Source: Reclinomonas americana ATCC 50394
Taxonomy: Eukaryota
Assembly (NCBI GenBank): GCA_048213135.1
Contig: PS015363.1
Span: forward strand, 66,158-86,157
Length of the DNA: 20,000 nt
Direction of reading: 5' to 3'
Shown: positions 82 to 20,000 of the stretch, piece by piece
Numbering within the stretch: the first letter of the stretch is position 1
Layout: the number at the start of each line of letters is the position of its first letter
The notes under the pieces: generated by a model
Database searches by the model: none
Told to the model about the DNA's origin: nothing
What the model saw: only the letters and a program-made list of their open reading frames with translations
Program-made: the position numbers and the translations under genes

Positions 82-2027
82 ATGATGCAGCAGCAGCAGG
101 CCGAGGCCTTTGGCACGGTGTCGCGATCGTCGGGCCCGCACCATGCTAGCGCTGACGCTGGCATGCTGCTGCCTCCGCTGCTGCTGCCGCCCCCTTCGCT
201 GCCACTTCCTGCAAGCACCGTACACATGGCGGTGCCGGTAGCCATCGAGGAGAGGCCGGCCGACAGTGCAAGCGGCCGCCGTTTCTCCCTCACCTTGCCC
301 GATGTGGCCATGACGCTGGAAGACGCCTCCCGACTGCACGCCGAGGACAGTGACGACGACGAAGAGGACTACGAGCTCGACGAGGATAACGACGACGACG
401 GTGACGAGGGGGGAGGCAGGCAACGTGACGGCCTTCGCAGCGGCGGCGGAGTCGCCACGGCTGCCACCACCGCAGCAACTCCGGCCGGCGCGGCTGCAAG
501 AAGCCGCGCCACAGCTGCAGGAAAGCGCAAGATCGAAATGATGTTTCTGGAGGCCAAGAACCGCCGCCATATTACATTCAGCAAACGCAAGGGCGGACTG
601 ATGAAGAAGGTGAGGAGAGCCGATTTACGCGACACAGCTGTCTGCAAATAGTAGTTGACACTCACCGCTGCGCATGCGCTGCGTACAGGCGTACGAGTTG
701 AGTGTGCTGGCGGCTGCACAAGTGCTGGTGCTGGTCGCCTCCGACAAGTGCCACGTGTACACGTTTGCCACGAGCAAGTTGCAGCCAGTGGTCACACGTC
801 CGGAGGGCAAAGGACTCGTGCAGATGTGCCTCAACATGCTTGACTCGGACGAAGAAGACGACGAGGATGGAGTCGACAACGTCAAGGAGGAGGCTGGTGG
901 GCGCCGCCGAGGGAAGCAGCCAGCCGGACGACAGCAGCGACGAAATACAAAAGACCGTGTTCGACAACAACTCCAGTTGCCACAGCTGCCACCGGCTCCA
1001 CCACCACTTCTTCTTGATCTTCCTCCGCTGCCACTGCCGCCCCCACCACCGCCACCGCCAGTGCTGATGGCAGTACCAGCGGAGTCTCGCGGAGACCACC
1101 CACCGCTGCCTATCTCTGAATCAGGCAACATCAGTTGGGTTCTTGCTGCTGTATTTCCTTTTATTCGCACAAAGAAGTTTGCGCTCACCACCATATTTGG
1201 CAATCACACAGGTATCCAGACAAACACAGGAGTGAGCCCCTGGCGACGTGCACTGCCGTCGGCGTCATACAGCGCACCAGATCCGGGACCACATTATCTG
1301 TATGCAGAGGCGCCCCCGTCACCTGCTGCGCGCTCCGCATACAGTTCTGGTACCATCCCGTATCACCAGTTGCTGCCTCCCCCGCCTCTGTCGTCGCTTC
1401 CTCTCCCACCACCACCACCACCACCACCACCACCACCGCCGCCACCACCAACTTCCTTGTACCCACCCAGCCGATCGTACGTACCCATTGCTCCCGAGCT
1501 GTCCCTGGTCGAGGCTTCATCGTTCGTCGGCCACGGTGGTTCATCTCTCGGCCTGTCGCCACACACTCACAGCCGTCTGCGATCCGATGGCATCAGCCAG
1601 CCGGTGAGTGGACGCAACTCGGCGGAGAAAGTCGCGACCGGAAAAATCGATATCTCACGTGTGCCTACAATATATACAGCACGGACTGTCGAGCCCGACA
1701 GGCAGCTCCACGCCACGTCGCCTGTCGAATCCGTTTCTCACCGACTTGTTGGCCTCGCCTTCGTCGTCGTTCATGCAACGCACCTCTTCTGGCGCTTCGC
1801 TCACGCAGTATGCATGCCAGCTGCCGAGCCATCCGCCGGATTCACCGCGCATCCCGCTGCAACAGCTGATCAACAGGAAGCCGTCCATGCCGCCGACTCC
1901 GCCGAGCACCACCGCCTCAACGACGACGACGACCACCACCACCACAACAGCAACTTCTCACGGAACTCCGCTACGTCGTGCTCCCTCCGCGCGGTCACTC
2001 AGCTTCTCCAACTCGGGCGGCTTATGA
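82..2027 (+). CDS. SRF/MCM1-type (type I) MADS-box transcription factor; 4 exons (82-609, 689-1133, 1212-1603, 1680-2027)
   Basis: Splicing intron 610-688 gives GKRKIEMMFLEAKNRRHITFSKRKGGLMKK|AYELSVLAAAQVLVLVASDKCHVYTFATSKLQPVVTRPEGKGLVQMCLN, a MADS box plus SRF SAM-like extension. Acidic N-terminal region and Pro/Ser/Thr-rich C-terminal region. Introns 1134-1211 and 1604-1679 are inferred from GT..AG and composition; stop TGA at 2025-2027. The start ATG at 82 is the first in-frame ATG within the window. Confidence 0.9.
1406..1450 (+). repeat. (CCA/CCG)n trinucleotide repeat encoding a poly-proline tract
   Basis: ccaccaccaccacca... run in exon 3 of the MADS gene. Confidence 0.9.
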
Positions 2028-2095
2028 ACTCAGCCACCGCACGCACGCTCTCGACGACCATGTATCATCACACCGTTTGCATCATGTACTGCACA

Positions 2096-2096
<1 letters not shown>

Positions 2097-2123
<27 letters not shown>
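2097..2123. repeat. (CA)n microsatellite between the convergent MADS and MNS1 stop codons
   Basis: perfect cacacaca... run. Confidence 0.95.
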
Positions 2124-2128
<5 letters not shown>

Positions 2129-2204
2129 AAATACACAAAAGCATTTTCCAATGTGCCCTCTTCCTTCTCACTCACTCTCACTCTCTGTCGCCTTCGCGTG
2201 CTGT

Positions 2205-4928
2205 CTAGCGACGAGGGGCTGATCGTGATGGGCCAGCCGAGGGCGGTGAACTGCCACTGCCCAGCTCGTTGATAAAGTAGTCGCGGAGATCTGGCGGCAG
2301 GGCATCGAGGTCGCGCGCATCGCGGAACACACCCTTCGGCAGGAACTTGAGCAGCTTGGAAGCATGCTCCCGAATCATGCGCTGTCGCTCCTGCTCGATA
2401 ATGGCACGACGAGCAGCCTGTCGTGACTCCTCGTCCTCCATCTCCTGGCGCTCACGCTGCCGCTGCTCCTCCACCATGCGCCGACGTTCCTCAATGAGTC
2501 GGTCAACCTGAATGACACGAGTGAGTTGTCGTCGTCAGTGATTTGCATGCGCATGGCCAAGACAAACTCTCCCACTCACCTCCTTGCGGTGGTCCATTTG
2601 CTTGCGACGACGCTTCTCTTGGCTGAGTTGCTCCAGGCGATCGTCTTCTGCGAACTTTTCCAGCATCTGGCGACGGAACTCGTCCTCCTCCAGGCGCTCG
2701 GCTTCCGCACGCTCGGCCTTGACACGCATCTGGAACTCGTTGGCCTGAATCATCTCCAGACGAGAGCGGATGCGCTTCTCGTTCTCCTCACGCTCCTTCT
2801 CGCGCTGCTTCTTGGCCTCCTCCTCCAAGTGCAGCTCCACCAGCAAGTTCTCGAACTCTTCCTGCTTGGCGCGCTCCTGCAGAATGCGCTCCGATTGCTG
2901 CACACACGTACACAGAAAACAGACACTGTCAGTCACCAGTTATGAGAGAAGAGATGAAGAGCGTGTGCAAAGACGCAACAATGGCAAGCAAACGGTCCTT
3001 CTCGGCCTGCACACCCGCACGCTTGGCCTCGCTGACTGCTGCTCGCGACTCTTGCTCCTCCAGGTATCGGCGAATCTACACGAGAAAAAATGCACTCACA
3101 TAAGTTGAACGGACCGGAGATGCTACACAAAATCCACGTGACAAACCTGCTCGTTCTCCTCCTGCTGTCTCCGTCTCTCGTTCTCTNNNNNNNNNNNNNN
3201 NNNNNNNNNNNNNNNNNNNNNNNNNNNNNNNNNNNNNNNNNNNNNNNNNNNNNNNNNNNNNNNNNNNNNNNNNNNNNNNNNNNNNNNNNNNNNNNNNNNN
3301 NNNNNNNNNNNNNNNNNNNNNNNNNNNNNNNNNNNNNNNNNNNNNNNNNNNNNNNNNNNNNNNNNNNNNNNNNNNNNNNNNNNNNNNNNNNNNNNNNNNN
3401 NNNNNNNNNNNNNNNNNNNNNNNNNNNNNNNNNNNNNNNNNNNNNNNNNNNNNNNNNNNNNNNNNNNNNNNNNNNNNNNNNNNNNNNNNNNNNNNNNNNN
3501 NNNNNNNNNNNNNNNNNNNNNNNNNNNNNNNNNNNNNNNNNNNNNNNNNNNNNNNNNNNNNNNNNNNNNNNNNNNNNNNNNNNNNNNNNNNNNNNNNNNN
3601 NNNNNNNNNNNNNNNNNNNNNNNNNNNNNNNNNNNNNNNNNNNNNNNNNNNNNNNNNNNNNNNNNNNNNNNNNNNNNNNNNNNNNNNNNNNNNNNNNNNN
3701 NNNNNNNNNNNNNNNNNNNNNNNNNNNNNNNNNNNNNNNNNNNNNNNNNNNNNNNNNNNNNNNNNNNNNNNNNNNNNNNNNNNNNNNNNNNNNNNNNNNN
3801 NNNNNNNNNNNNNNNNNNNNNNNNNNNNNNNNNNNNNNNNNNNNNNNNNNNNNNNNNNCGCAGCACCTCCTGCTGCTGCAGGAACTCGCGAACGAATGCC
3901 TGCGTCTCCTCCTGCTTGCGCATGCGGTCCAGCTGTTCGCGCTCGTCCTCCAGCTGGATCTTACGCACGAGCTCGTCAATCGCATCCTTCTCGCGGAGGA
4001 ACTCCTCATACGCATGCTGGCGTGCAATCTCGCGCTCCTCCATCTGCTGCTGCAGCATGACCTTGCCCTCCAGCAAGTGCTCGTGTCGCAGTCGCTCCTT
4101 CTCGCGCTCCGCAGCGTCAGCCGCCAAACGCGCCTGCTCCATCTCATCCGCCTTGACTCGGTCGTATTCCTGCACCGCACAAGGTGAGCCCTCACAACAG
4201 CCATGTGTGTGTGTGCGTGTGCGCGTGGACGCACCGCATCCTGCTGTTGCCGAATGCGTGCCTCCTCCACCTGATTGGCACGCTCCATGCTGACATACGC
4301 CACACGCAGCTTCGACTCCAAGTCCCTCAACTCATCGCTCTCCTCGCGAATGCGCTGCGNNNNNNNNNNNNNNNNNNNNCCATTGTTCATCATCATTACC
4401 ATCATTATCATGATCAGAGGAGAGCACACTGCCAGAGTCTCTCTCACCTGCACAACCTTCTCTTGTCGCAGTTGCTCTGTGCGACGGCGACTGATCTCAT
4501 TGGCAATGCGCTCCTCCTCCTCCACCAGGCGCTGCTGTTGCACGCGCGCGCGCTCCGACTACATCACACACACACAGGCGACATGACATGAGTGACACAC
4601 TCACACGTGCTGTCTGTCTCTCTTCAGAGCGCGCGCGCGCAACTTCCTCCATGGCCTGCTCAAGTGCCAGCTCCCGCTCGTACTCATCCAGCTCCTTCTG
4701 GCGACGAAGGCGCGTCACCTTTCCGTCAGAGTACTGCGCGCCCGCAGTCAGACTGTGTGTGGTCAGCATGCCCTTGAGATCCTGCTGAAAGTGGTCGCGT
4801 TGCCGCTCCTTTTGCATGCGCATCTCATAGAGTCTGCGAGTCGCCTGTTTGCGCGCACACACACAGGTAGAGTGAGTCACGCAGACAGCAGAAAGAGAGA
4901 GAGAGAGAGCGTGGTGCTGGCGGACCAT
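2205..4928 (-). CDS. MNS1: Meiosis-specific nuclear structural protein 1 (coiled-coil ciliary microtubule inner protein, TPH domain); 7 visible introns
   Basis: Spliced product is an E/R/Q-rich coiled coil with MNS1 hallmarks: RIREESDELRDLESKLRVAY, AYEEFLREKDAIDELVRKIQLED, MLEKFAEDDRLEQLSQEKRRRKQMDHRKEV and IIEQERQRMIREHASKLLKFLPKGVF. Probable ATG-only first coding exon at 4928-4926, followed by intron 4925-4845. Stop TAG at 2207-2205. Confidence 0.88.
3187..3858. other. assembly gap (672 N) inside an MNS1 exon
   Basis: run of N. Confidence 1.
4360..4379. other. assembly gap (20 N) inside an MNS1 intron
   Basis: run of N within intron 4447-4355. Confidence 1.
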
Positions 4929-4979
4929 TTTCGTGTGAGCAAACGGTTGTGGGTGTGAGTCATCGATCTACGGTCTACA

Positions 4980-7900
4980 TTAGTGCGTTTTTGGCTGTTC
5001 GCGCAAACATGTCTCCACGAGGCGCGTCACTCGCTGGCCGAGATCGTCCACCTGCGGGTGAATGCTGAGCAGAGTGAAGAACAGTGAACGAGAAGGCAAC
5101 ATGGTGTGCCGGACCTGATGATTCCACGAGACCACGAGTCGTGAGCTGCGGCAGGCCACCGACACGCCGCCGACGTTGATAAAGTCAGGCGCCGACGATG
5201 AGATGGGCACGGAGTCGGACACGGCTCTGTTATGTACGACGTGAATTGTGCGAATGGGGACGAAGGGGAGAGCGCGACGAACTGAGAGAGGGAGCACAGA
5301 ATGCCCTCGAGGGTCGCCAGGCCTTCGGCGTCCGAGGCCACGCGGTGCACTACGGTGTGTTTTAGGCGGGTGACCGACACGCCGAGTGTTTGTTCCGCCT
5401 CTGTTGGCGACACAAGCACCGGGACCTGCGGGAGGAGGTCACTCACCAAAGAGCGAGAAAAACATCGCGCTCTTCAAACACCACCACCAACCTCGCGATC
5501 CCGCAGGAGCAGCACGCCACGCACGGGGACCGAGTCACCGGGACAGCCGCCATCGGCTCCCGTCACTACCAGACATTATCACACTACTGTCAAAGTGCTG
5601 TTCAGAACTGAAGCGGTGTGATTGTGGACGCAACTGGCGGCAAGTCGGCCGCGGCTTTCCGCTTGCAGCGACGCCGAAATGTCGACACTCATGGCGGGGC
5701 CGGGTGGCACCGACAGCTGTGTATGAGAGGAACTTGCAATGATAAGTGGCACGTAGGTCAGCACTCTCATGTGCAAGGTGGAGCACGCAACCGAGGCCGC
5801 TCCATCTTCCTCCATCTCGAGAAATCGCGCATCATCTGGTGTGCCCTGGATGCTCACCGAGGTCCCATTCGGCGGCGTCTCCACCGGCACGCCGATTTCA
5901 CGCTCGATGCGTCGCTTCAAGTGCGCCCTGTCGCGGCAACGAGAGTGAGACGGAGAGAAGACAGCAATATTTCGCTCAAGACAGCGCGCACATTTTGGCC
6001 TTCTCGCCATGCACCAGCATGACGTTGCGCGGCTGCACCTGACGAATGAGCTGGAAAATGCCCTTGGCATCGGTGTGCGCACTGAAAGACATGTTCTCCA
6101 CGCGCATCTGCACCCGCACTCGTGTCTTGCGGTCAATGTCGACTTCGGGAGCGCCAGACAGGATCTTGGCGCCGACCGTGCCCGGCACGCAGTACCTACA
6201 CTCGCCCCCCGCCCCACGAATCAGTAATCCAGTGGACGGCGCCTTCGTATGCAAGACTGACGCACCCTGGAATGACCACCATGTTCTTCTCGTCTTCACA
6301 CCAGGCGCGGAACACCTCCAGCGACAAACCCGCGTGCAGCATACCAGGTGTGGCGAACAGGACGCACGGTCCAGGTGCGCGCATGAGCGACCGGTCAAAG
6401 GCCTTGATGTGCCGAAAGTCGAACATGTTGCTACAAGCACGGAAAGAACGTGAGCGTTAACTCGGTCGCCACTCCCTCACTCACTCAGCAGCTCACCGAT
6501 CAGTGAACGTGGTCCGGATCTTCTCGTTCGTCCACTGAATGTACAGCTGATAGTACAAGTTGGCCTTCTCGACCAGTCCTGTGCAGAGGCGCAGACCATC
6601 ATCAGCTTCTGTCGCCACCCTTGCCAGCGAGAAAATGTATCGTACCCGCTGAAAAGTACACTGGCACCGTCAAACCCATGCGCTCCCAGTACGTCTCGAT
6701 GAGAATGCACAGCTCTTGCGCTCGACCGAGTGCAAACACCGGAATCAACACCTGCGCCCCGCCACGTGAGCCACGCCACTCCGACGCACACACACACACA
6801 TAGGAGAGTCACAAAAGACCTTGCCACCACGCTGCACCACTTGATGCACGTTGGCCAGGAAGGTGCTCTCGCGAGTGCGTTTCGAGTCGCGCACAGTCGT
6901 GGCGTAGCTGAGCTCAAAAAGTGAGCGCGTGGGTGAATAATAGGGAAAGGGATCACGCGTCACGCACGTGGACTCGGTAATGAGAAGATCTGGTCGCAAA
7001 AGGTCGGCGCTGGCCGCTCCCAAGTGTCGATCCGGTGTCATGTTGTAGTCGCCCGTGTAGAGCACACTCTCGCCGCCGCATCGCACGTGGAACATGGCGG
7101 CGCCGAGCACCTGCAGAATGCTCGCGTGAGAAGGAGACGGAGAGAGTGCCAAAGAGAGGGTCGACCACGCAACATGGCCGGCGTAGTACGCCGTGATCTC
7201 CATGTCATCGTCGACCACCACAGTCTCACGCAGCTTGACGCAAATCACTGCGCGCCCGCGCCCGCGCGCGCATGTGAGTGACAAAATCACCAATACACGA
7301 CTGGTGCAACGATACAGCAGTGCCTCACCCTTCTTCATGCACGCCGCAATGTCGTCGGCCGTGAAAAAATCAGTCTCGCCTCGCCGATCCACCGCAATGC
7401 GTCGAAAGTCTTCCAGCAGAATCGGGCAAATGGCGCGCGTGGGACCCTGCCAACGCGCAACAAGTGAGTGAAAGCTGTCTCCTCACAGCTCAGCGCTCCC
7501 TTCCACGCAACTGTCATATACACTGGTCCACTGTAGCCGCACTGCTCGGTAAAGTACGGCAGCGATCCGCAGTGATCCAAGTGACTGCTCACAATCGATT
7601 CTTGAGACAACACACTCTCACTCTGCCTGCGTGCATGCAAAAGTGTACGCAACAAGTGCGAGATGATCACACAGTCGATGATCTGACTGTAGTCGCCTGT
7701 GCCGGCACCTCGCAGGAACGCAAAGTCGGGGAAGCGTCGAGCATCATTGAATCCCATGTGCATTCCACAGTCAAACATGATGTTGCGCCCACTGTGTGCA
7801 TGTGTGTGTGAGAGAGAGAGAGAGAGACAGGCAGGCAGAGAGGAAACAAGGTGAGTGCTTCTGCACGCGATACACGCACCCCAGCGTGACGACAACACAC

Positions 7901-8030
7901 GAGCGACCGACATCTTGCCTGTGAGTGTGTGCACGCATGCATGTGCGATGAGTGAGTGAGTGGACGTGTGTGTCAGTCACACGCAAGCTGTGTGAATGAC
8001 CAACCCTGCGCCGAGACACACGACTCGCAT
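4980..8030 (-). CDS. INTS11: Integrator complex subunit 11 / CPSF73-II (metallo-beta-lactamase + beta-CASP RNA endonuclease); about 17 introns
   Basis: Spliced motifs [162 protein letters not shown] and C-terminal SWNHQ. The QDVGRSC, GMHMG and YNMTPDRHL motifs distinguish it from CPSF3. Stop TAA at 4982-4980. A short extra 5' exon upstream of 8030 is possible. Confidence 0.95.
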
Positions 8031-8116
8031 GCTGCGTGCTATGCGTGCAATCGTGTGCAGGACGACGACGACGGACCAAACATTGCATTGTCGCTTACAC
8101 TCCCGCTCCCCTGTCT

Positions 8117-9024
8117 NNNNNNNNNNNNNNNNNNNNNNNNNNNNNNNNNNNNNNNNNNNNNNNNNNNNNNNNNNNNNNNNNNNNNNNNNNNNNNNNNNNN
8201 NNNNNNNNNNNNNNNNNNNNNNNNNNNNNNNNNNNNNNNNNNNNNNNNNNNNNNNNNNNNNNNNNNNNNNNNNNNNNNNNNNNNNNNNNNNNNNNNNNNN
8301 NNNNNNNNNNNNNNNNNNNNNNNNNNNNNNNNNNNNNNNNNNNNNNNNNNNNNNNNNNNNNNNNNNNNNNNNNNNNNNNNNNNNNNNNNNNNNNNNNNNN
8401 NNNNNNNNNNNNNNNNNNNNNNNNNNNNNNNNNNNNNNNNNNNNNNNNNNNNNNNNNNNNNNNNNNNNNNNNNNNNNNNNNNNNNNNNNNNNNNNNNNNN
8501 NNNNNNNNNNNNNNNNNNNNNNNNNNNNNNNNNNNNNNNNNNNNNNNNNNNNNNNNNNNNNNNNNNNNNNNNNNNNNNNNNNNNNNNNNNNNNNNNNNNN
8601 NNNNNNNNNNNNNNNNNNNNNNNNNNNNNNNNNNNNNNNNNNNNNNNNNNNNNNNNNNNNNNNNNNNNNNNNNNNNNNNNNNNNNNNNNNNNNNNNNNNN
8701 NNNNNNNNNNNNNNNNNNNNNNNNNNNNNNNNNNNNNNNNNNNNNNNNNNNNNNNNNNNNNNNNNNNNNNNNNNNNNNNNNNNNNNNNNNNNNNNNNNNN
8801 NNNNNNNNNNNNNNNNNNNNNNNNNNNNNNNNNNNNNNNNNNNNNNNNNNNNNNNNNNNNNNNNNNNNNNNNNNNNNNNNNNNNNNNNNNNNNNNNNNNN
8901 NNNNNNNNNNNNNNNNNNNNNNNNNNNNNNNNNNNNNNNNNNNNNNNNNNNNNNNNNNNNNNNNNNNNNNNNNNNNNNNNNNNNNNNNNNNNNNNNNNNN
9001 NNNNNNNNNNNNNNNNNNNNNNNN
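8117..9024. other. assembly gap (908 N) between the 7TM gene tail and the INTS11 5' end
   Basis: run of N. Confidence 1.
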
Positions 9025-11576
9025 GAACCACCTGACGCCGCCGCTGCAGCAGCCGTAGCAGCGGTACTCGTGCCTGTGGAGGCAAAGCGACGATTTGAAC
9101 CACTTGGCACCAGTGAGCCATGCGGGCTCTTCCCTGTGCTGCTGTTGGAGGACCTCGGTGTGCCGTCGCGACTGCCACCGCCATTGATGCTCATGCCGAA
9201 CGGCGCGTACTCGTCTTGGTCACGTGCGCCGCCGCCGCTGCCGCCACCGCCACCACGTCTGGGTGACGATTGCGACGAGGGCGTGCCGCTGCGTCCCTCC
9301 AACAGCAACGGCGACTCGTCGACAAACGAGTGCGGCTGCGATTGTGAGCCCTCCACCTTGTCGCCCGTCGCCATTCGTCGATGCGATGACACGGCAGTGG
9401 GCTGGGCAGCCTGCTGGCCGCGGATTTCTCGTCGGCTCGGTCGACGCGAACCCAGAAGCGCATCGGCAGCNNNNNNNNNNNNNNNNNNNNNNNNNNNNNN
9501 NNNNNNNNNNNNNNNNNNNNNNNNNNNNNNNNNNNNNNNNNNNNNNNNNNNNNNNNNNNNNNNNNNNNNNNNNNNNNNNNNNNNNNNNNNNNNNNNNNNN
9601 NNNNNNNNNNNNNNNNNNNNNNNNNNNNNNNNNNNNNNNNNNNNNNNNNNNNNNNNNNNNNNNNNNNNNNNNNNNNNNNNNNNNNNNNNNNNNNNNNNNN
9701 NNNNNNNNNNNNNNNNNNNNNNNNNNNNNNNNNNNNNNNNNNNNNNNNNNNNNNNNNNNNNNNNNNNNNNNNNNNNNNNNNNNNNNNNNNNNNNNNNNNN
9801 NNNNNNNNNNNNNNNNNNNNNNNNNNNNNNNNNNNNNNNNNNNNNNNNNNNNNNNNNNNNNNNNNNNNNNNNNNNNNNNNNNNNNNNNNNNNNNNNNNNN
9901 NNNNNNNNNNNNNNNNNNNNNNNNNNNNNNNNNNNNNNNNNNNAGCCATCGAGGTCGGCGACATGTCGCCTCGCGCGGGACTCTGCACCGTGCCGCTTCC
10001 ACCGTTACTGTCGGTGGAGCTGTTGGGTACAGAGATCGTGTGCGCTCCTGAGCCGCTCGGCGTGCTGTCGCCACCAACAGACGCGGCAGCGGCGGCAGTT
10101 CGGCCCGACACATCGACCCGCACAAACGCGGGCGCGGCCGACGGCACCGACACTGACAGCGACATTGGCTGGCGGTGTGGATCGTCGACACCGTCGACGG
10201 TGTTGACCAGGCAGTCTGCTTGCGATGACACCCGCTGCAGCGCGCGAACAATGTCATGAAACGAGGTGTGTGTGTGTGTGTGTGACACGTGCATAAGTCA
10301 ACAAACATACCTGTGGCAACTCCGGATTGATCACCAGCGGAGATTGTTCGCTCACGAGCGACGGGTTGGTGATTGGCGACTTGATACGCAGGATCAGGAG
10401 GCTCACGCAAATGGGCACAAAGTCGAGAGTCATGGACACAATGGCAACTGCGTGCACGGAGAGAGAAAGAAACATGAGCACAATGACGGAGATGCACATT
10501 TTTGGGTTGTTGTCATCCGCTCAACTAAAGAAGCGTGAGTCTGGGTTGGACCAGAGCGCCTGATGGCGCACAGCCACAGTCGCGTCCATGACGCAGCGCG
10601 CAATCAGCATGACGCCAAACATGACGCTGATGACAAACACCTTGGCATGCACACAATGGTGTCAGATGCGACTGCTGCATCGGAGACAAGCGTGCAAGAA
10701 AAGAAATATTCTCCGTCACCATTCGCACGTGCGAAAAGTTGGCCGTCTCGTCCTTGACGCCGCCGACCATGGCGCGATGCGTGAAGAAGTACCAGAAGAG
10801 GAAGAACACAACAATCGACGCCGACAGAATTGCATGATATGAAAACTGCCGCGCCACAAGATCAGTGCGAGTGGTGCACTGGGCGGTGCTTGCTTTTCCT
10901 TCTTCAACAAACCTGCAACTCCCACACCCACGACGCGTGCGGACCCAGCACCACAAAGCCGATAAGCAAGCCCCACTCCAGCGCATGAAGCTGCACATGT
11001 GCAAAGGAAGATTCGATGAGATGAGGGGAGAGGGAGTCTCTCACTCGTGACATGCGTACCAACAGGTTGATGCCGAAGAAGAGCTTGGCTGGCCGTCGCA
11101 AGAAGCGATGCACGTGCTGCATGGAGTACGAGTTCGACAAGTGCAGCAGACTCGACCTGTGCGCCAGTGTGTCAGCGCACGCACACGCACATGTGGAGAG
11201 GAGATGCGAAGGCCTCTCACCAGCACATGACCAGCGGGAAGAACGCCGAGTAGTAGAGCATGGAGCAGCCAAAGTACGTCACAATCATTAGTGTGGGCGG
11301 GAATAAGTGACCATCGTAGGGTAAGTCAAAGAACTGTGCCGCTCGACCTGCATGTGCGCACGTGCTGGTCATTACACAGCAGCACTTGTGCAGACAGACA
11401 GACAGACACACGCACACACTGTCTCCATCACACTCACCGAGTAGCACTGGTATCACGAGGAAAAAGAAGACCTTTTGCGGAGGATACGACCGCGGAAACT
11501 TGTGGCAGTGTGCGACAAACTCGTGGCTCGCAAAGAGGAAGAGCAGCACGTAGAGACCAGCCATGGTGTAGCACAT
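9025..11576 (-). CDS. GPR137/TOM1/THH1-like seven-transmembrane protein with a long low-complexity cytosolic tail; 3' end runs into a gap
   Basis: GCC-ATG at 11576. Seven introns give seven hydrophobic segments: MAGLYVLLFLFAS, QKVFFFLVIPVLLGRAAQFF, FGCSMLYYSAFFPLVMCW, LFFGINLLLHALEWGLLIGFVVL, YHAILSASIVVFFLFWYFF, VFVISVMFGVMLIARCVM and FIAIVSMTLDFVPICVSLLIL. The QK.F..L...R, F..L...W, TM6 Arg and TM7 D/E-x-x-P pattern resembles the DUF1084/GPR137 family. A Ser/Gly-rich tail follows. Confidence 0.7.
9471..9943. other. assembly gap (473 N) inside the 7TM tail exon
   Basis: run of N. Confidence 1.
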
Positions 11577-11689
11577 GGCGGGCCCAGCTGTCACCAAAAA
11601 GAGAGAGAGGAGTGAGTGAGCGAGTGTTTCAGACACGCACTTCACTGCGCACAGTCTCGCGACTGAAAGATGCGCGTGTGCAGAGAGGA

Positions 11690-12050
11690 ACGACAGATGC
11701 ACACACGCACACACAGACGGAACGAGAGAGAAAGAGAGAGGAGTGGACACGCAAGCGAGGAGAAACACGACGACACTGACCTCACTTACAAAACACGACA
11801 GGAATCGACACTCACTTCGCGTCTCTCTCTTCCTCTCTCTCTCACACTCACACTCACACACTCATACACAGAGGGAGAGACACACACACGCGCGCACGCA
11901 CCAGCCTCCAACGCATTTGTCATTCTGTGTGACTCCACGCGCACACTCGCACGCACACACACTCACTCACTCGCCCTCTCCAACTGCCACCGCAGACACG
12001 CAAAGAGACACGCGCAACAGCACACAACACACGCGCTCTCTTCCTCCACT
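11690..12050. promoter_or_regulatory. (CA)n/(GA)n/(CT)n-rich divergent intergenic region, probable bidirectional promoter and 5' UTRs
   Basis: Lies between divergent ATGs at 11576 (-) and 12154 (+) and is dense in degenerate dinucleotide repeats. No specific promoter motif identified. Confidence 0.45.
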
Positions 12051-12153
12051 CTCTGCTTTTGGATTCACCGCCCGTCCGACCCATCGGCTTCCCGCGCACA
12101 CGCGAGCCCGGATATCTTGCGCCATCTGTCCCGCTTATTTTCTGAGTTTCACA

Positions 12154-15100
12154 ATGCGAAGGCCACGGTTAGCACCGTGTGCCGCCGCACCGTGGCAAAG
12201 ATTACCACTCACACTGATAGTGATGGTGGTGGTGGTGGTGGTGATGGCAATGGTTGTCATTGCTCAGGGGGAGGAGGAGGAGAGTGGAGAGTGGATGCAC
12301 GAGCTGTCGCCGATTGATCTCAGTCAGGGTGCGTGCGTCTGCTCTGTGTGCTGTGTGTGTCTGCTGCGTGTGTGTGTTGCTCATGTGCGTGCGTGTGTGC
12401 AGTGGAGCAAGGGCCCAAGTCGGCGACGGGTCAGCACTTCCCGAATGTCGGCAAGCAACCGCCGCCGTCGCTGCCGGATCCGCGGCCACCGGTGCCGCTG
12501 AACAACGACTCGCCGCACACACTGCCGACGGCGTCGGGTGTGGTTGCGCCGCCAGGGCCGGTGGGTAGTGTGCCGGGAGGACCGGCCACGGCGGGCACGC
12601 TGGCGACACCGTCGACGCAGATTGCGGGCACGACGGTTCATCAGCTGGCGCCCGAGGTGAAGCCGCAGGATACGCTGACTCCTGTGCCGGATACGCTGGT
12701 GCCGGTGACGGTCACTGGACCCGGGTGCAGTCTGGGCGAGAAGCGCAAGCCAGAGGAGATTATCGGCAAGCCATCGGGAGCGTCGGCCGTCAAACCGGTG
12801 CCGCCCGCCATCAAGAAGATTGTGCCGCGCATCAAGACCGTGCTGGATCAATTGGAGGTGTGTGTGTGCGTGGTGATTGCGGAGAACCATGGATGGCACA
12901 CTGCGGCTCACGATCGCGCTCTTGTTTCTCGTCACAGCGTCGACCAATCAACTGCTCCCCAAAGCTGAACTCAGTGCTCCGCGCCGTGCAAAACAGCATG
13001 ATGGAGGCGCGCACGGCGTGTCAGAAGCCTCTGATTTGCATCGAGGGTATTCGTCGTTGGCAGTACCAGGTACTTTGTGTGTGTGTGTGTGTGTATGATG
13101 ATAAGCGTGTCGCGATGGATTTGCTGACAAGTGCGACAGATCTCAAACGGTCGCACACACTGGGCACGCCTGGTGGTCTCAGGGCACGAAGTGGTGGCGC
13201 AAGTGTGGGAGACTCCGTCTATCGAGACAGAGTATGCCAGTTCGTCGATTCCGAGTGCCAAGGGCAATGCGTTTCGTCACTTGCTGCTGTGCTGTTGACG
13301 ATGTGCTGTAGTTCGTCAGCCCACTGTGATGATGCAGTGTGACCGACAATGCGGAACGCATGACTGTGGTGGGCCTCTTCCGTCCGCGCCAGTCGCAGAC
13401 GGAGGCGCGACAACCACTCGATGTCTGTGCGCTCGGTGCGCGGCCAGCCGCCACCGCCAGCGACTGCGCACACGCCGATCTGTCCTCGCTCAAGGCCACG
13501 ATTACCAACTTTAATCAGTATGTGGAGCTCGACGGTGATCTAACTCCGCTGCACGTCGACATGTTGCGTTTCTGGGATCGTACAGGAGGTCGTGAGGGCA
13601 TGTATTTGTGCTGATGCGCTGTGTGCAGCATGGAGGATGCCGATGTGGATGAGGTGGACGGCGAGAGTGGCGAGACGCGCAACTTGGTGGAGCCCGAGGT
13701 GCTCAACTCGGAGCTGGAGGTCGACGAGATTGACGAGGCTTCCAAGTTGTCGCTGGCGGAGATTGTGGAGTCACGCTTGTCGGTGTCCGAGTACGATTTC
13801 CGCAACGTGGCCGACAAGCTCAAGTGCCCCGTGCGCGTTCTCGACCAGCGGTTCTGGTGAGAGTCTTCTCCATATGCAGCAGTTGGCAGCTGTGAGCGCC
13901 CTCCACTGATCCTGCATTGTGTCCACAGTGGTGGCAGTTGGGCGTTCTCGGCCGCCACCTCACTGTCGGCAAGTTTGTGCATCGTGACGCAGGTTGGAAA
14001 ACGCCCTTCTTTACTGCTGTTCTTCACTGCCGTGTAGCAGCGCACTGACTGGTGGTGATAGGGTCGCGACACGGCACTGGTGAGCCCGCAAGACATTATC
14101 TCGTGCACTGGTCGCGGTGACGGCTGTCGTGGCGGTCACTACTATCGCACGTACAAGCAGATGGCCAAGAAGAAGCTGCAGGTGTGTGTGCGCACGCGCT
14201 GGAGGTCGACCTTGTGGAGCTTGTGTTGACGCGGCTCTTGTTTTCATGCACGTCAGGTTCTCTTTGACGAGTGCCACCCGTTCGTGTCGGCGGATATCAC
14301 ACTGGGCGAAAAGTGTGGTGTCACCGCTCCGCTGCAACAGTGCAAGAACCCTCGTCGCATCGGGGCTGCAAACACGCGCTATCTCGCTGCACTGGATTCG
14401 CCAGGCGCCGAGGATGCGTTGAAACGAGCCATTCGTCGGGTGGGTGCTGTCAGTGCCGAAATCGTCGTGCATCGCTCGTTCTACAAGTACTCGGGTGGTG
14501 AGTGGGGGAGTGTTTCACAACGACGACAGACTCACATCACATCGTACTCACTGCTTTTTGATGTGCAGGCATCTACACGGCCAAGCAGGCCGATGTGGTC
14601 GACGGTCTGCATGCTGTCACAGTGATTGGCTGGGGCGACGATCCGCAGGCGCCGTACTGGATCATTCAGAACTCGTGCGTCAGTTGCTAATGTGGCTTGG
14701 AGTGACTGGCAACTGAATCGATTGTTAACGTTCTCGTTGTTGCTGCAGGTGGGGTGAATTGTGGGGCGAGAAGGGATTTGCGCGCATCGCTCGCGACAAG
14801 GCCACCATTGACAAGCTGGGACTGCGCAACTTTGTGTGGGTCGACGCCACTCCGAGCGTTGTGTGCAACAAGATCAATTGCGTGCATGGCATGACCTCGG
14901 CAGACTGCAACACGTGCTCGTGCGACGAAGGATGGAGTGGACCCGATTGCAACAGTTGTGTGTGCAGAAGGGAAGAGAAGGAGTGTGCGTGCGTACATTG
15001 CTGACGTGCAGTGTCTGTGTTTCAGAGTGCACGCTAAAGTGCTACAATGGCGGCGAAGTGGACACTGCCGCCTGCCAGTGCATGTGCCCGGACGGATTTG

Positions 15101-18001
15101 GTGGCGTGCAGTGCGAACTGAGTTGCGTTGCCGAGAGTCGACATGGTGTTTATCTCGCTCGTGGTTGCTGACGGCGAGTGACAGGCATCACACCACTGCA
15201 CGGTCTTATCGGCGTTGTTCCGCTGTGCAAGCGTTCTGATTTCGGTGTGCGCCTCACTGGTTTCCGAGCTCATGAAAAGGTATGCATGCTCTCCACGCGT
15301 CTTGAGCAGCGAACGGAAGACTCAAATCGACGGCTGTGCAGGATTTCATCATTGTGACACGACACCCGAACCCCCCGCGTGACACCTCTGGCAAGTGGAA
15401 CACTCTGATCAGCAACAGGCTGCCGTGCAAGGGCGTGTGTCCGCCGGGCCCCGTAGATGTGCACCTCAGCCTGTCCGGTTTGCAGTCCGGTCGCTATGTC
15501 GTTGCGCACAGACCGTTTCCCTTTTCGTGTTTCTCTGCTTCCCTTCCTCATCACCTGCTCGCCAGATCTGGTACATGCAGGCGCAGACGGCGAATGCATT
15601 CGGTCAGGAGACAGGCTACGAGGCGCAGGTGCCACTGAACATTGAGATCGAGGGCGTGCCGTCCAGCTGTGCGTCACTCGTCTCTTTAGCCAGTGCCGAT
15701 GTGAGAGTGTCTCCCTGACATCTTGTTGATGTCCATGCGCAGCCTGGGCCAAGATCAATCCCACACCCGCGATTTTGGCACCGGCGGCCGAAGTGATTCC
15801 GGTGCCGCCGCCGCGCTGCACGGTGGTTCCCGGCCAGGTACGCGGCAAGTGGCTGTACAATCCGTTCGACGATGTCGCACCGGCAGCCGTCGACCCGCTG
15901 ACCGACATGCCGGTGACGGAGCTGGATGGATTCCCGGTCGACAAGGAGGTCGCGGATGCCATTCGCAAGGTCGACGACGACGCGTCGGTGGAGATCCTCG
16001 CGCCCAAGACGCAGGCCCCGAAAGACCCGAATCAGGCGTTGCCGGTACCCGGCACTCCGTACATTGATCCGTGCACGTCGCCCACGTACACGGAGCTGAC
16101 CGTCACGTTCAAGCGCGCCCCCGGTCTGAAGGATGTCGGCATTCTGCACTACGAAGTGGAGCGCAGCTCAGACGCACTGTTCAACGAGGGTGTGGAGCGC
16201 AGTGTGGTGGCCCCCGACGGTTTCAACACCTCCAAAGTGCGGCACACTGTCCGCGGACTCGCCGCCGGTCGCGCCAATTATGTACGTGCACGAGTGGTGA
16301 CGGTGACTGGTCGCTCCGGTCCGTGGAGCAAGACAAGCCAGCCGCTACGCACGGCTGGATCACCCAGTTGAGTATGAGGCAATCGTTCATTTTTCTCTGA
16401 ACCACCATCATCTAACTCATGGTTCGTGCAGACGGGCAATGCAACGTGCCGCTCTTCACCTCGCCGGCCATTGCCTACGCATCCGCACCGTACATGATGG
16501 TGAGTGTGAGGCGAATCTGTTTGCAGCACCGGTTCGCGAAAAATGACGCGATGGCATTATGTTGCAGGGAACGCCGGGAGTCGAACAGTGCCCACTGAAT
16601 CAGGGAGTAGCCAGCTGCTGCACCAAGCAGTCGGTGAAATGTTTCGTCGTGCACGCAATCGTGTGTGTGTCGTCTGTGTGGTCGAGACGAGAAACTGATC
16701 CGTGGTGGTGGTGTGTGCAGTCATGAAAGAGGACCTGACGAACCAGGCCTCGGTTTACGCCCGCGGACCCGACGGCTTCCTCGACATGGTGGAGCGCCTG
16801 GTGACGATGGTACGCGTTTTTCTTCTGCACTGCTCTCCAGAGTACTGCATCCTCATCCATGCACGCATTGCACAGGCTGCGCACTGGACGACATACACTG
16901 CCGGTGTGCAGGCGTGGCCGAGGGTGCGGCAGGCGCAGCAGCGGGCACTCGACACGGCGTACAGGTTCGCGTCGGACAACCGCGCACTGATTGAGCAGTG
17001 CTTCACCACCACCCACCGTTACCTGGCCGGACTGTACTGTTTGGGATGCCGTGGCGACTGGGGTCTGTACATGTCGCAGTCATCGCTCGGTTTCACCACC
17101 GTGGCGTTGCACACGTCGACGTGCGACAAACTGGAACAAGGTAATATATGGGCAATGATCGAGTGGTGGTGGTGGTGGTGGTGAGTCTCATTGTGGCACG
17201 CGACAGACTGTGCGGCATTTGTCGATGCGTACCACGTGGCCGTGCGTGATATCAACGGGATTTATGCGGCCGGCTTTGGTGGTGAACTGCCGCCGAACCG
17301 TCCGGTGGAGGTGCCGACCGAGTCGCCTTGCGCGCACACGTTCGAGAACCAAAAGTCGCTCATCAAGTGCCGCACGCACGTGTGCCAGACTGTGTTTGGT
17401 GGTGCGTTGTGCTTCACTCGCTTGTTTCACCGTGCATCGTGGTGTTGACAAGTGCACTTGTGTTTGCGCAGGCACCGACATTCGTTTCGGAGCATCGCGC
17501 AAGTTGCGAGCAGTGCACTCGGCGTCGTCTTTTCCTCCAGCCCCCCACCCGCGTTCTCACATTGTTTGTGCAGGACCGACTTGTCGTCGGAGGTGCTGCT
17601 GACGAGTGCCGAGGTGGCAAGCGAGGAGACCAACAACTTTTCCGACATTTTGTTGTATGGCGGCACTCAGGGCACTCCACCTGCAGCGGTGCGTTGTACA
17701 TATCGTTATCACGCACTTTCGTTGCGTGTACTGACGCAAAGAGAGACACAGGTGGCCAATGTGTACTCGGACAAGGGTTACAACTTGTTTGGCATTCAGG
17801 CGCCCCCACCAATCCCAAACCTCAACAGTGGCTTGCAACGTTGCGTCTCGCGGCTGTCTTGCTCTTTTCTGTCTCTCTCGCTCACCCATTTCCCTCTTTG
17901 CAGGCTCGTTGCCCAAAAACTCGTCAACAAGAGCATCGACAGTCAGCGGTTGGTTGTTGCTCTTCGCCGTGGCTGTTGTCACTGCGCTAGTGGCTTGGTG
18001 A
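12154..18001 (+). CDS. Large secreted, probably GPI- or membrane-anchored mosaic protein: signal peptide, Pro/Thr-rich region, cystatin-like domain, C1A papain-fold domain (Cys to Ser), 2 EGF-like repeats, beta-sandwich, FN3, folate-receptor-like Cys-rich domain; about 24 introns
   Basis: A continuous frame is obtained with GT-AG introns at donors 12329, 12858, 13070, 13271, 13563, 13857, 13993, 14182, 14498, 14675, 14955, 15122, 15280, 15501, 15669, 16367, 16500, 16641, 16810, 17141, 17402, 17503, 17689 and 17840. N-terminal LIVMVVVVVVMAMVVIA. Papain motifs YDFR, DQRFCGGSWAFS, SPQDIISC, GCRGG, FYKYSGGIY, HAVTVIGWG and YWIIQNSWGELWGEKGF. EGF motifs CSCDEGWSGPDC and CMCPDGFGGVQC. FN3 motif ...HYEVE...GL...YVRAR...GPWS. 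Hydrophobic C-terminus WLLLFAVAVVTALVAW*. Confidence 0.8.
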
Positions 18002-18112
18002 ATACAGTAAAAACAACAAGACAAAGAAAACGCTCACTCACAAATGCCACTCAAAGCAATGCATTACCGTGCTCTCTCTCTCTCTCTCCTACTGCTACGC
18101 TTGTTACGATTT

Positions 18113-20000
18113 TCAACTGCTTAGTGCCATGCCGAATGCCTCGTATGCCGGCAGTGGTTCGGCGTTACCGTACAGCAGCACAGTTGGCGGCTTGCCCTTG
18201 ATGACGCGCGCGGCCACCCGTCGCACATCCTCAATGCTGACCTCGTCGATCTTGGTGCACAGCTCCTCACTCGACAAGTGCTTCCCGTATGTCAACATCT
18301 GGCGACCCATGTCCTCCGTCATGCCACCACGCATCTCGCGACCCATCAGCAGACTCATCTTGAGTTGATTCTTGGCACGGGCCACCTCGTGCAGCCAGAT
18401 CGGGTCTGCAGAGACGAGCAGGGTGAGCGCAGTGAGCGAGGCGTCTGCGGGAAATCACCCTCACCTGCATCGAGGTACAGCTTGCGCAGCTCGGCCACCA
18501 ACACTCGCACACAATCCTCGACATTCTCGTGGAAGGTGTTGGCGTAGATACCCCACAGACCGCCGTCGGTGTACGTGTGCACGTTGGNNNNNNNNNNNNN
18601 NNNNNNNNNNNNNNNNNNNNNNNNNNNNNNNNNNNNNNNNNNNNNNNNNNNNNNNNNNNNNNNNNNNNNNNNNNNNNNNNNNNNNNNNNNNNNNNNNNNN
18701 NNNNNNNNNNNNNNNNNNNNNNNNNNNNNNNNNNNNNNNNNNNNNNNNNNNNNNAGACGGCGGCGTTGATCCAGCCGTACCGGTTCAGCACACGCAGGTA
18801 CCTGTGCTACACGATCAGTGGACGGCAGCAGGGTCATGGGCAGCGGGGGGTGCAGCCACGCAACAGTCGGCTGTACATGCCCTTGCCGGGCCCGCCGGCC
18901 GAGAACGAGTTGCCACCGCCCATCATCATGTGCAACACGTACAGTGCGTACACGTCGGGGTCGTGCCACGAGGGCGCTGCGACGAGTGCAAGTGAGATGG
19001 AGCGACGGTCGGTCCGCGAGTGAGCAGAGGCATGTACCATCAAAGAAAATGCCGAGGTGCGTCAGCGGCGGCAGATGCGTGGGATTGTGTGGCACCTCCA
19101 ACACGTGCTCGCGGAAGTAGCCGCCAGTGTAGACCGACGGCGACTTCTCGATCTCCAAAACGTGACCCTGCCGATCGACTTGTCGGTGCGGAACCTTGGC
19201 AAAGAACTGATTGGCCAGGTGCACCAGGGTTTCGTGAGCCATGCCTGCGACCAAGAAGAGGTAGGTGGTGTGAGCACCGCGCAGCACAAGCCGACGACTA
19301 ACACACACACGCACCCGTGCCCGACAAGACAATGCGCGGTCCAACGGCGTGCCTGCGCAGATACTCGCGCAGTGTTTGCGGTGTTATCTGGGCGGCCTCG
19401 GCAGGCGTCGGCATGAGCGGGTTGCCAATGGCACTCCGCGGATAGGCGATGCGATGGGCGATCTCGGTAATCAACGAGTTGTGGTTGCGCTCGAGGTCCT
19501 CCAGCTCAAACTCCAGAATCTGCCTCTGCTCCTCCATATCCTCGTCGGCAAAGCGCGGCTGCAGCACCGACTGCAACCGGAGGAGGGAATGAGCGTTTAT
19601 GCAACGCGGAATGCGTGACAGATGCGCGCGCACGCACCTGCGAAATGATCTCGAGCATGCGCGGCAAGTTGTCCGGCAACACCTCCGCGCGATACACGAG
19701 GAACTCGCGCTCGGCATCCGACGAGAACTTGCCTCCCATCGACTCGAGCTCCGCCTGCACCTGCGACGCCGTCACACTCCCGTATCCCTGTTCGCCCACC
19801 CGCATGTCAGACTCGTGAAAGGATACGAGCGTGTGACAATGAGACCTTGAAGGCCAGGCGCGTGAGAAAGTACGTGGCTCCACGCTCTGTGGGCCTCTCG
19901 AAGCGCGAGCCCGTGTTGATGAAGAGTCCCACGCTGCACACGTTCTCCGGTCGATTCTGCACCACCACGATGGTGGGAAAATATGCTCACTCACTCTGTC
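18113..20000 (-). CDS. PMPCA: Mitochondrial-processing peptidase alpha subunit (M16B, non-catalytic); 5' end lies outside the window
   Basis: [13 protein letters not shown], degenerate zinc motif (YFLTR in place of HxxEH), YTGG, the diagnostic glycine-rich loop [36 protein letters not shown] and ARAKNQLK...[11 protein letters not shown]. Six visible introns. Stop TGA at 18115-18113. Confidence 0.93.
18588..18754. other. assembly gap (167 N) inside an MPP-alpha exon
   Basis: run of N. Confidence 1.

Follow-up and report, generated by a model that had tools for sequence, protein, structure and literature searches.

Two classes of 5' splice site, one base apart, in a 20-kb window of the Reclinomonas americana genome

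Donors (5' splice sites) to which U1, a small nuclear RNA (snRNA), binds in a shifted register are known from human, where Roca and Krainer are said to have reported them in 2009 as a handful of atypical cases. The present analysis concerns the donors of a 20,000-nucleotide (nt) stretch of Reclinomonas americana ATCC 50394 (assembly GCA_048213135.1, contig PS015363.1, forward-strand positions 66,158 to 86,157), in which donors starting GTTGCG stand alongside GTGCGT- and GTGAGT-like ones; this whole stretch is referred to as the window, and positions are counted from its first base. At human shifted-register sites the +1G pairs with C9 of U1 and all pairs downstream of it move by one position. 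Of 201,541 human sites, projections assigned 68 to the +2/+3 bulge register and 51 to the +3 bulge register, and 2.1% to the non-canonical registers together after curation (PMC4856993). Other lineages have altered their consensus: the donor of Entamoeba is GUUUGU(U) with a U1 reading AACAAAC, that of Mastigamoeba is GUGCGC with a U1 reading ACGUAC, Thecamonas prefers C at +4 and the Mamiellales use GYGCGY, the last two with a standard U1 (bioRxiv 10.1101/2022.06.08.495308).

In the window, the donors fall into two classes, class I and a displaced class II. Class II resembles the human shifted-register sites in that all U1 pairs would lie one position off the cut and +1G would replace -1G; the test oligonucleotide ACA/GUCAAGUAUA of PMC4856993 shares its geometry with A/GUUGCGUG here. 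Unlike the human sites, class II accounts for 18 of 63 introns (about 28%), is near-invariant and has a GCG rather than an AAG core. With the human +2/+3 and +3 bulges it shares an extra U after GU that moves the +5G to +6, but the exon-side preference (-1G) that a bulge leads one to expect is absent. Class I prefers C at +4 and departs from GUAAGU, as is the case in Mastigamoeba, Thecamonas and the Mamiellales. Entamoeba and Mastigamoeba have a single consensus in the ordinary register, whereas two registers occur here in the same genes. The introner elements of Micromonas and others (PMC3879977) are likewise numerous short introns with a shared conserved start; unlike these, the introns of the window show no similarity beyond the donor, and at least three of them lie at ancient positions. 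A literature search yielded, among the papers listed, no splice-donor use of GTTGCG or GUUGCG(U), no lineage-wide shifted register and no two registers coexisting at comparable frequency; on GUGCGU/GTGCGT donors, the search gave nothing relevant beyond Micromonas. A prior description could exist in a genome paper or in a donor table of its supplement.

The original prediction, a reading of the DNA alone, had placed 13 GTTGCG donors, and every coordinate was right. The seven other GTTG donors that it had listed were also found in place (1134 GTTGGG, 10525 and 16367 GTTGAG, 14955 GTTGTG, 5491 and 8004 GTTGGT, 13993 GTTGGA), and its estimate of about 64 introns, about 20 of them starting GTTG, agrees with the present catalogue of 63 introns plus one spanning a gap, with 20 GTTG starts. 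It had described most other donors as GTGCGT/GTGAGT-like and GTAAG as essentially absent; among the 63, there are 11 GTGCGT, 11 GTGAG[T/G/A/C] and no GTAAG. Class II was defined by T at +3, a base other than G at +5 and G at +6. It comprises 18 donors (13 GTTGCG, two GTTGAG, one GTTGTG and two less certain GTTTCG), and its consensus is H|GTT[G/T][C/A]GT(G), compared with G|GTG[C/A]GT(G) for the 45 donors of class I. Three GTTGGT/GTTGGA donors and two GTTTGT donors retain both +5G and -1G and are therefore ordinary class I. The original prediction had treated the roughly 20 GTTG donors as one shifted class; the displacement holds for 18 donors, and it does not hold for the GTTGGT/GTTGGA trio, which, like the GTTTGT pair, is in the ordinary register.

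The class II profile is the class I profile displaced by one base, exon side included. When class I positions -1 to +8 are laid against class II positions +1 to +9, with slots named by class I position, G fills slot -1 in 39/45 class I and 18/18 class II donors and T fills slot +2 in all donors of both classes (45/45 and 18/18). The agreement continues with G at slot +3 (27/45 and 16/18), C at +4 (20/45 and 15/18), G at +5 (38/45 and 18/18), T at +6 (26/45 and 14/18) and G at +7 (20/45 and 8/18). The single differing slot is +1, which is G in 45/45 class I and T in 18/18 class II donors. On the exon side, A is found in 19/45 donors at class I -2 and in 8/18 at class II -1, while -1G occurs in one of 18 class II donors versus 39 of 45 in class I (p = 1.6e-9). 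The original prediction had seen in the +3T donors the usual consensus of this genome moved along by one base, and this is borne out by G at +6 in 19/24 +3T donors versus 5/39 others (p = 1.6e-7) and by a profile overlap over +3 to +8 of 0.471 when shifted versus 0.147 when not. The two classes can be compared as GGUGCGUG (class I) and GUUGCGUG (class II), which differ in one base, the class II cut lying one base further upstream. The ratio of GCG to GAG is 13:2 in class II versus 12:11 in class I (p = 0.039).

GTTGCG is strongly concentrated at donors. Across the window it is not enriched (24 matches versus 19.7 expected, with 42 of 200 shuffles reaching 24), but within the spans of the six genes it stands at 13/63 donors and at only 3/1159 of the remaining GTs on the sense strand (odds ratio 100, p = 2.6e-15), two of these three falling within introns. 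Four of the GTTGCG donors are fixed to the base by homologous proteins. Three of them, all on the minus strand in the gene of Integrator subunit 11 (INTS11), lie at 7647-7653 (t|GTTGCGT, within SHF|HLDH), 7505-7511 (a|GTTGCGT, YMT|GPT) and 7167-7173 (t|GTTGCGT, AGH|VLG) and are anchored by the INTS11 homologue P0004; the fourth, at 18858-18864 (minus strand, t|GTTGCGT, MYSRL|YLRVLN) in the gene of the mitochondrial processing peptidase alpha subunit (alpha-MPP), is anchored by P0124, P0125 and P0127. The motifs SHF|HLDH, AGH|VLG and YSRL|YL, which the original prediction had taken to fix donors, do so. P0004 is also collinear across the donor at 8004 and eight ordinary INTS11 donors. A GC-AG reading, in which GTT is kept as a codon and the intron runs from GCG three bases later, was rejected at the four anchored sites: SHFHLDH, AGHVLG, YMTGPT and MYSRLYL would each gain a residue that is found in no homologue.

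Retention produces a stop or a frameshift for 10 of the 13 GTTGCG introns, and for eight of them no other GT in phase would yield an intron of 55-95 nt. On the minus strand, retention of the 82-nt intron at 2973-2979 (t|GTTGCGT) gives a stop and a frameshift with no in-phase alternative, and that of the 69-nt intron at 5628-5634 (a|GTTGCGT) gives a stop, again with no alternative. The 85-nt intron at 4637-4643 (a|GTTGCGC) shifts the frame if retained, its sole alternative being a 46-nt GTGAGT intron, shorter than all others here. Alignments of MNS1-like homologues start at the exons downstream of the 2979 and 4643 introns and are uninformative for these two donors. At 10519-10525 (a|GTTGAGC, 78-nt intron), reading through leads to an immediate TGA and no alternative exists. 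On the plus strand, the same is true of 16367-16373 (a|GTTGAGT, 65-nt intron). The 66-nt intron at 13563-13569 (t|GTTGCGT) gives a stop on retention and has no alternative; that at 14955-14961 (a|GTTGTGT), between EGF-like repeats, gives a stop and a frameshift and has one alternative 18 nt upstream; that at 15122-15128 (a|GTTGCGT, 63 nt) gives a stop and has one alternative 21 nt upstream; and that at 17503-17509 (a|GTTGCGA), which follows a 31-nt exon, shifts the frame and has no in-phase alternative.

The remaining GTTG and GTTT donors are of several kinds. The donor at 5785-5791 (minus strand, g|GTTGCGT, 75-nt intron) is the only class II member with -1G and is not frame-forced, its intron having a CTGAC branch-like motif and a CAG end. 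At 15501-15507 (plus strand, c|GTTGCGC), the donor is indistinguishable from a tandem GTCGTT three bases upstream (15498). The two probable GTTTCG sites, both on the plus strand, are ambiguous: at 13271-13277 (c|GTTTCGT) the intron is forced, but a parser donor at 13289 giving a 49-nt intron also fits, and 16641-16647 (t|GTTTCGT) competes with a GTGTGT 24 nt downstream. Removal of the intron at 17840-17846 (plus strand, c|GTTGCGT), the last of its gene, produces a hydrophobic C-terminal tail and a stop, and one alternative lies 12 nt upstream. The donor at 1134-1140 (plus strand, a|GTTGGGT) has G at both +5 and +6 and is of uncertain class; its 78-nt intron is in frame and without a stop. The introns at 1134, 5791 and 17840 are supported by intron-like features alone. 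The ordinary-register trio consists of 7998-8004 (minus strand, g|GTTGGTC, with -1G and +5G, anchored by P0004), 5485-5491 (minus strand, g|GTTGGTG, with a weak gap-free alignment to P0004) and 13993-13999 (plus strand, g|GTTGGAA, within a papain-like domain), where retention gives a stop. In a PDB search, the exon downstream of 13993 aligns to cathepsin K from residue 48, while the 21-amino-acid (aa) upstream exon gave no match and the spacing is off by two residues. The CAG|GTTTGT donors at 3146 and 10912 (minus strand) have the Entamoeba-type hexamer, here in the ordinary register with -1G.

The catalogue was built in two steps. A dynamic-programming parser with a codon-usage score was run, accepting any GT as a donor without preference at +3 to +6; all genes were then curated by hand from the sense strands and verified by translation. 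This neutral parser found seven of the 13 GTTGCG donors (4643, 2979, 7511, 7173, 5791, 5634 and 13563) as well as 10525 and 14955, and by homologue comparison it picked wrong in-phase neighbours at other introns. Position -1 played no part in placing the class II sites. Curation gave 63 complete GT-AG introns, all of 58-90 nt, in six stop-free gene models; the 64th intron, with donor GTGAGA at 4447, crosses a 20-N gap, and MNS1-like homologues break exactly there. All 63 start GT and end AG, with C preceding the AG in 56, T in six and A in one, and a branch-point-like YTVAY motif (mostly CTSAY) is present in 57 (18/20 GTTG introns and 39/43 others). The U12-type donor /RTATCCTT was found at none of the 63. 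By these termini and internal motifs, the introns are classed as ordinary U2-type GT-AG spliceosomal introns of a gene-dense, intron-rich eukaryote. Their removal restores a conserved frame: over 12 N-terminal introns, INTS11 runs collinear with P0004, and alpha-MPP is collinear with its homologues across the 18864 intron.

INTS11 also allows the age of some of these introns to be addressed. Eighty INTS11 loci recovered from metagenomes by a scan with P0004 were used for intron positions and as a donor control; none was closer than 68% in its best segment, and no sister genome was among the 80. Of the 13 GTTGCG introns, the shared-position comparison covers three. Introns matching 7653 in codon and phase were found in L025/L056, L047, L051 and L064-66 (donors GTGAGA, GTGAGT and GTACGC), those matching 7511 in L051/L066, L071, L080 and L050 (GTATCG, GTAAGT, GTGTGC and GTATCT), and those matching 7173 in L051 and L064-66 (GTATGT). 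As these three ancient positions have ordinary donors elsewhere, old introns appear to have come by the shifted donor where they already stood. The simplest route to class II is a doubling of the +2 T; it would convert a class I donor and leave the exon boundary unaffected. Among 33 distinct refined INTS11 junctions from other eukaryotes, none starts GTTG and two have T at +3, compared with seven GTTG starts among the 17 donors of INTS11 in the window.

As to mechanism, we lean towards a spliceosome that accepts two donor layouts, with U1 binding class II in an all-pairs-shifted register. One U1 snRNA would bind class I and class II alike. In class II, +1G would occupy the slot normally held by -1G and pair with C9 of U1, +2U would be mismatched and UGCGU(G) would pair as usual, and U6, U5 and Prp8 would later cut at the sole GU on offer. 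Such pairing of +1G with C9 fits the statistical loss of -1G. The pairing was modelled by nearest-neighbour duplex folding of class I and class II sites against U1 5' ends. With a G opposite the C, class II sites reach -5.0 kcal/mol with ACGUAC and -7.0 kcal/mol with ACGCAC, and with these variant U1s +1G pairs with C9 in 9/18 class II sites and with C8 in 1/18. The U1 5' end of this lineage is predicted to be retuned to GCG (ACGYAC-like rather than ACUUAC), because class II favours GCG over GAG and pairs better when a G stands opposite the C. The excess of GCG in class II is what one would expect if the register is weaker and only the best-pairing block is tolerated in it. A wider reading, held tentatively and with the chances somewhat against it, is that this lineage routinely recognises donors in the shifted U1 register throughout its genome, at about three in ten introns, old conserved ones included, so that U1 binding and cleavage site would be uncoupled at scale and the later spliceosome would set the cut; a U1 5' end retuned to GCG would probably be what enables such routine use.

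Several points weigh against the shifted register. With a standard U1 5' end, class II sites average -1.8 kcal/mol versus -6.7 kcal/mol for class I and are weak in any register, so that the model has to call on an unseen variant of U1 or on help from a protein; pairing with U6 would likewise need a shift or a bulge. Only a modest preference for A (8/18) is seen at class II -1, and among the 18 donors of this class five (15501, 13271, 16641, 5791 and 17840) are ambiguous or not frame-forced. The catalogue was curated with the claim known, and ambiguous class I cases were resolved towards -1G donors. Its scope is 20 kb and 63 introns, with junctions placed from DNA and protein homology alone.

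The original prediction had proposed a bulged register, perhaps made routine by a variant U1 or U6 snRNA or by an altered U1-C or Prp8. In such a register +1G-C8 and +2U-A7 would pair in the normal way, the additional U at +3 would bulge out and GCGU would pair a step further on. A bulge explains the displacement of +4 to +8 equally well, and experiments in human cells have established a +2/+3 bulge register (PMC4856993). It would leave C9 facing -1, however, and so predicts -1G, which is found in only 1/18 class II versus 39/45 class I donors; the exon profile is displaced with the rest, class II -1 resembling class I -2. Duplex folding puts +1G on C8 in only 1/18 class II sites with the variant U1s and 2/18 with the standard U1. 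With the preference for -1G gone and the exon profile displaced, the shifted register is preferred, and the bulge as originally worded is considered unlikely. A pair of U1 snRNAs, a standard-like copy serving class I and another whose 5' end is complementary to GUUGCGU serving class II, would account for a class that is sharply defined and almost invariant (GTTGCG in 13/18) and that pairs poorly with standard U1. Altered U1 5' ends occur in Entamoeba and Mastigamoeba, and a mixture of standard and modified copies is mentioned for Physarum (bioRxiv 10.1101/2022.06.08.495308). The slot-by-slot identity of both classes is nevertheless explained more simply by a single U1, and a second copy is judged improbable.

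It is highly improbable that the class is an artefact of the gene models, with the true boundaries elsewhere or the stretches coding. Three of the 13 GTTGCG introns are in frame without a stop, 15501 has its tandem alternative and 4643 its short-intron one, all of which such an artefact would accommodate; against it stand the four sites anchored by conserved protein, the 100-fold enrichment of the hexamer at donors and the -1 signature of class II, which emerged though it was not used in placing the sites. The least probable explanation, to which we give hardly any credence, is a burst of intron gain from one mobile, introner-like source carrying GTTGCG, which the original prediction had also raised. 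The same hexamer does recur in five of the six genes, yet the GTTGCG introns are mutually no more alike than other pairs (mean local score 7.8 versus 8.0, the top scores coming from TG/CA microsatellites) and resemble the other introns in length and composition. Distant eukaryotes have introns in the same position and phase as those at 7653, 7511 and 7173. With no copy similarity and three positions that are not lineage-specific, an introner or transposon origin was rejected.

Work on the choice of cut site under out-of-register pairing of U1 has used a small number of human sites and engineered constructs. If this organism does use the shifted register for a large share of its introns, it would offer a natural system for asking which later component (U6, U5 or Prp8) sets the cut, whether U1 co-evolved and in what way one-base T duplication carries a second donor grammar into old introns. 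Gene finders trained on GTRAGT-type donors will misplace about one third of the exon boundaries in this genome; the neutral parser used here set many of them wrongly. The weight of the finding depends on transcript support and on the 28% holding genome-wide.

The window is eukaryotic DNA of about 58% G+C outside 2240 N in five assembly gaps, and six closely packed genes were modelled in it, all without internal stops when the curated exons are translated. An Rfam scan of the window gave nothing at the gathering score and no snRNA gene. G1 (82-2027, plus strand) encodes an SRF-type MADS-box protein and has three introns (donors 610 GTGAGG, 1134 GTTGGG and 1604 GTGAGT), the first of which interrupts the Pfam SRF-TF domain. 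G2 (2203-4928, minus strand) encodes an MNS1-like coiled-coil protein with a TPH domain (Pfam TPH, 1.9e-15) and has six complete introns besides the one across the 20-N gap; it holds two longer gaps as well. The 2579 intron and the gap-spanning intron of this gene were placed by MNS1-like homologues, which are collinear across 2579. The proposed start codon of G2 (4928-4926, minus strand) lies only about 50 nt from the INTS11 stop codon (4982-4980, minus strand), and its proposed first exon consists of nothing but the ATG, with a GTCCGC intron next to it; the two genes are either packed extremely closely, or G2 really starts at another place.

G3 (4980-8030, minus strand) is the INTS11 gene, encoding a beta-CASP nuclease in a 613-aa model with 17 introns, five of them starting GTTGCG and two GTTGGT. 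Its identity follows from the named matches in a protein search, which are INTS11, and from the alignment to P0004, a 706-aa INTS11 that is 77.5% identical to the INTS11 of the window over 458 aligned columns. The contig that encodes P0004 is 2163 nt long and so leaves no space for introns. P0004 was the closest match to an INTS11 exon, with 81% compared with 76% for the next (among the best 120 of 746 matches); this gap suggests a sparsely sampled lineage. In an INTS11 tree, the window sequence and P0004 fall together on a long branch that adjoins Tetrahymena and lies apart from the opisthokonts, amoebozoans and plants named in it, a placement too weak to assign a group. Among the matches listed in the protein searches made with window exons, no protein was identical to them.

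G4 (9025-11576, minus strand) encodes a multi-pass membrane protein of no recognised family, with seven introns and a 3' part broken by gaps; one of its exons was without a Pfam match. G6 (18113-20000, minus strand) is the alpha-MPP gene (peptidase family M16), which has six introns and is truncated by the end of the window. G5 (12154-18001, plus strand) has 24 introns and encodes a 1393-aa secreted protein with a papain-like domain, EGF-like repeats, an fn3 domain and a hydrophobic C-terminal tail. It matches cathepsins K and B, its fn3 match being weak; for its 207-aa exon, a protein search gave no relatives and the Atlas gave only fn3-like bacterial clusters. The motif of the papain family is CGSCWAFS. 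In G5 the corresponding stretch (13930-13992, plus strand) reads CGGSWAFS, and the domain has both the His (HAV) and the Asn (NSWG) region. The catalytic Cys thus appears to be replaced by Ser, and the protein may be a serine-nucleophile or an inactive papain-like protein. A 31-nt micro-exon of this gene (17472-17502, plus strand) follows a GTGCGT intron and precedes a GTTGCG one, where the neutral parser favoured a single 150-nt intron. Microsatellites of the (CA)n/(TG)n and (GA)n types are plentiful in introns and intergenic DNA of the window, for example at 2090-2125, 7795-7830, 10265-10285, 11690-11990 and 13075-13095.

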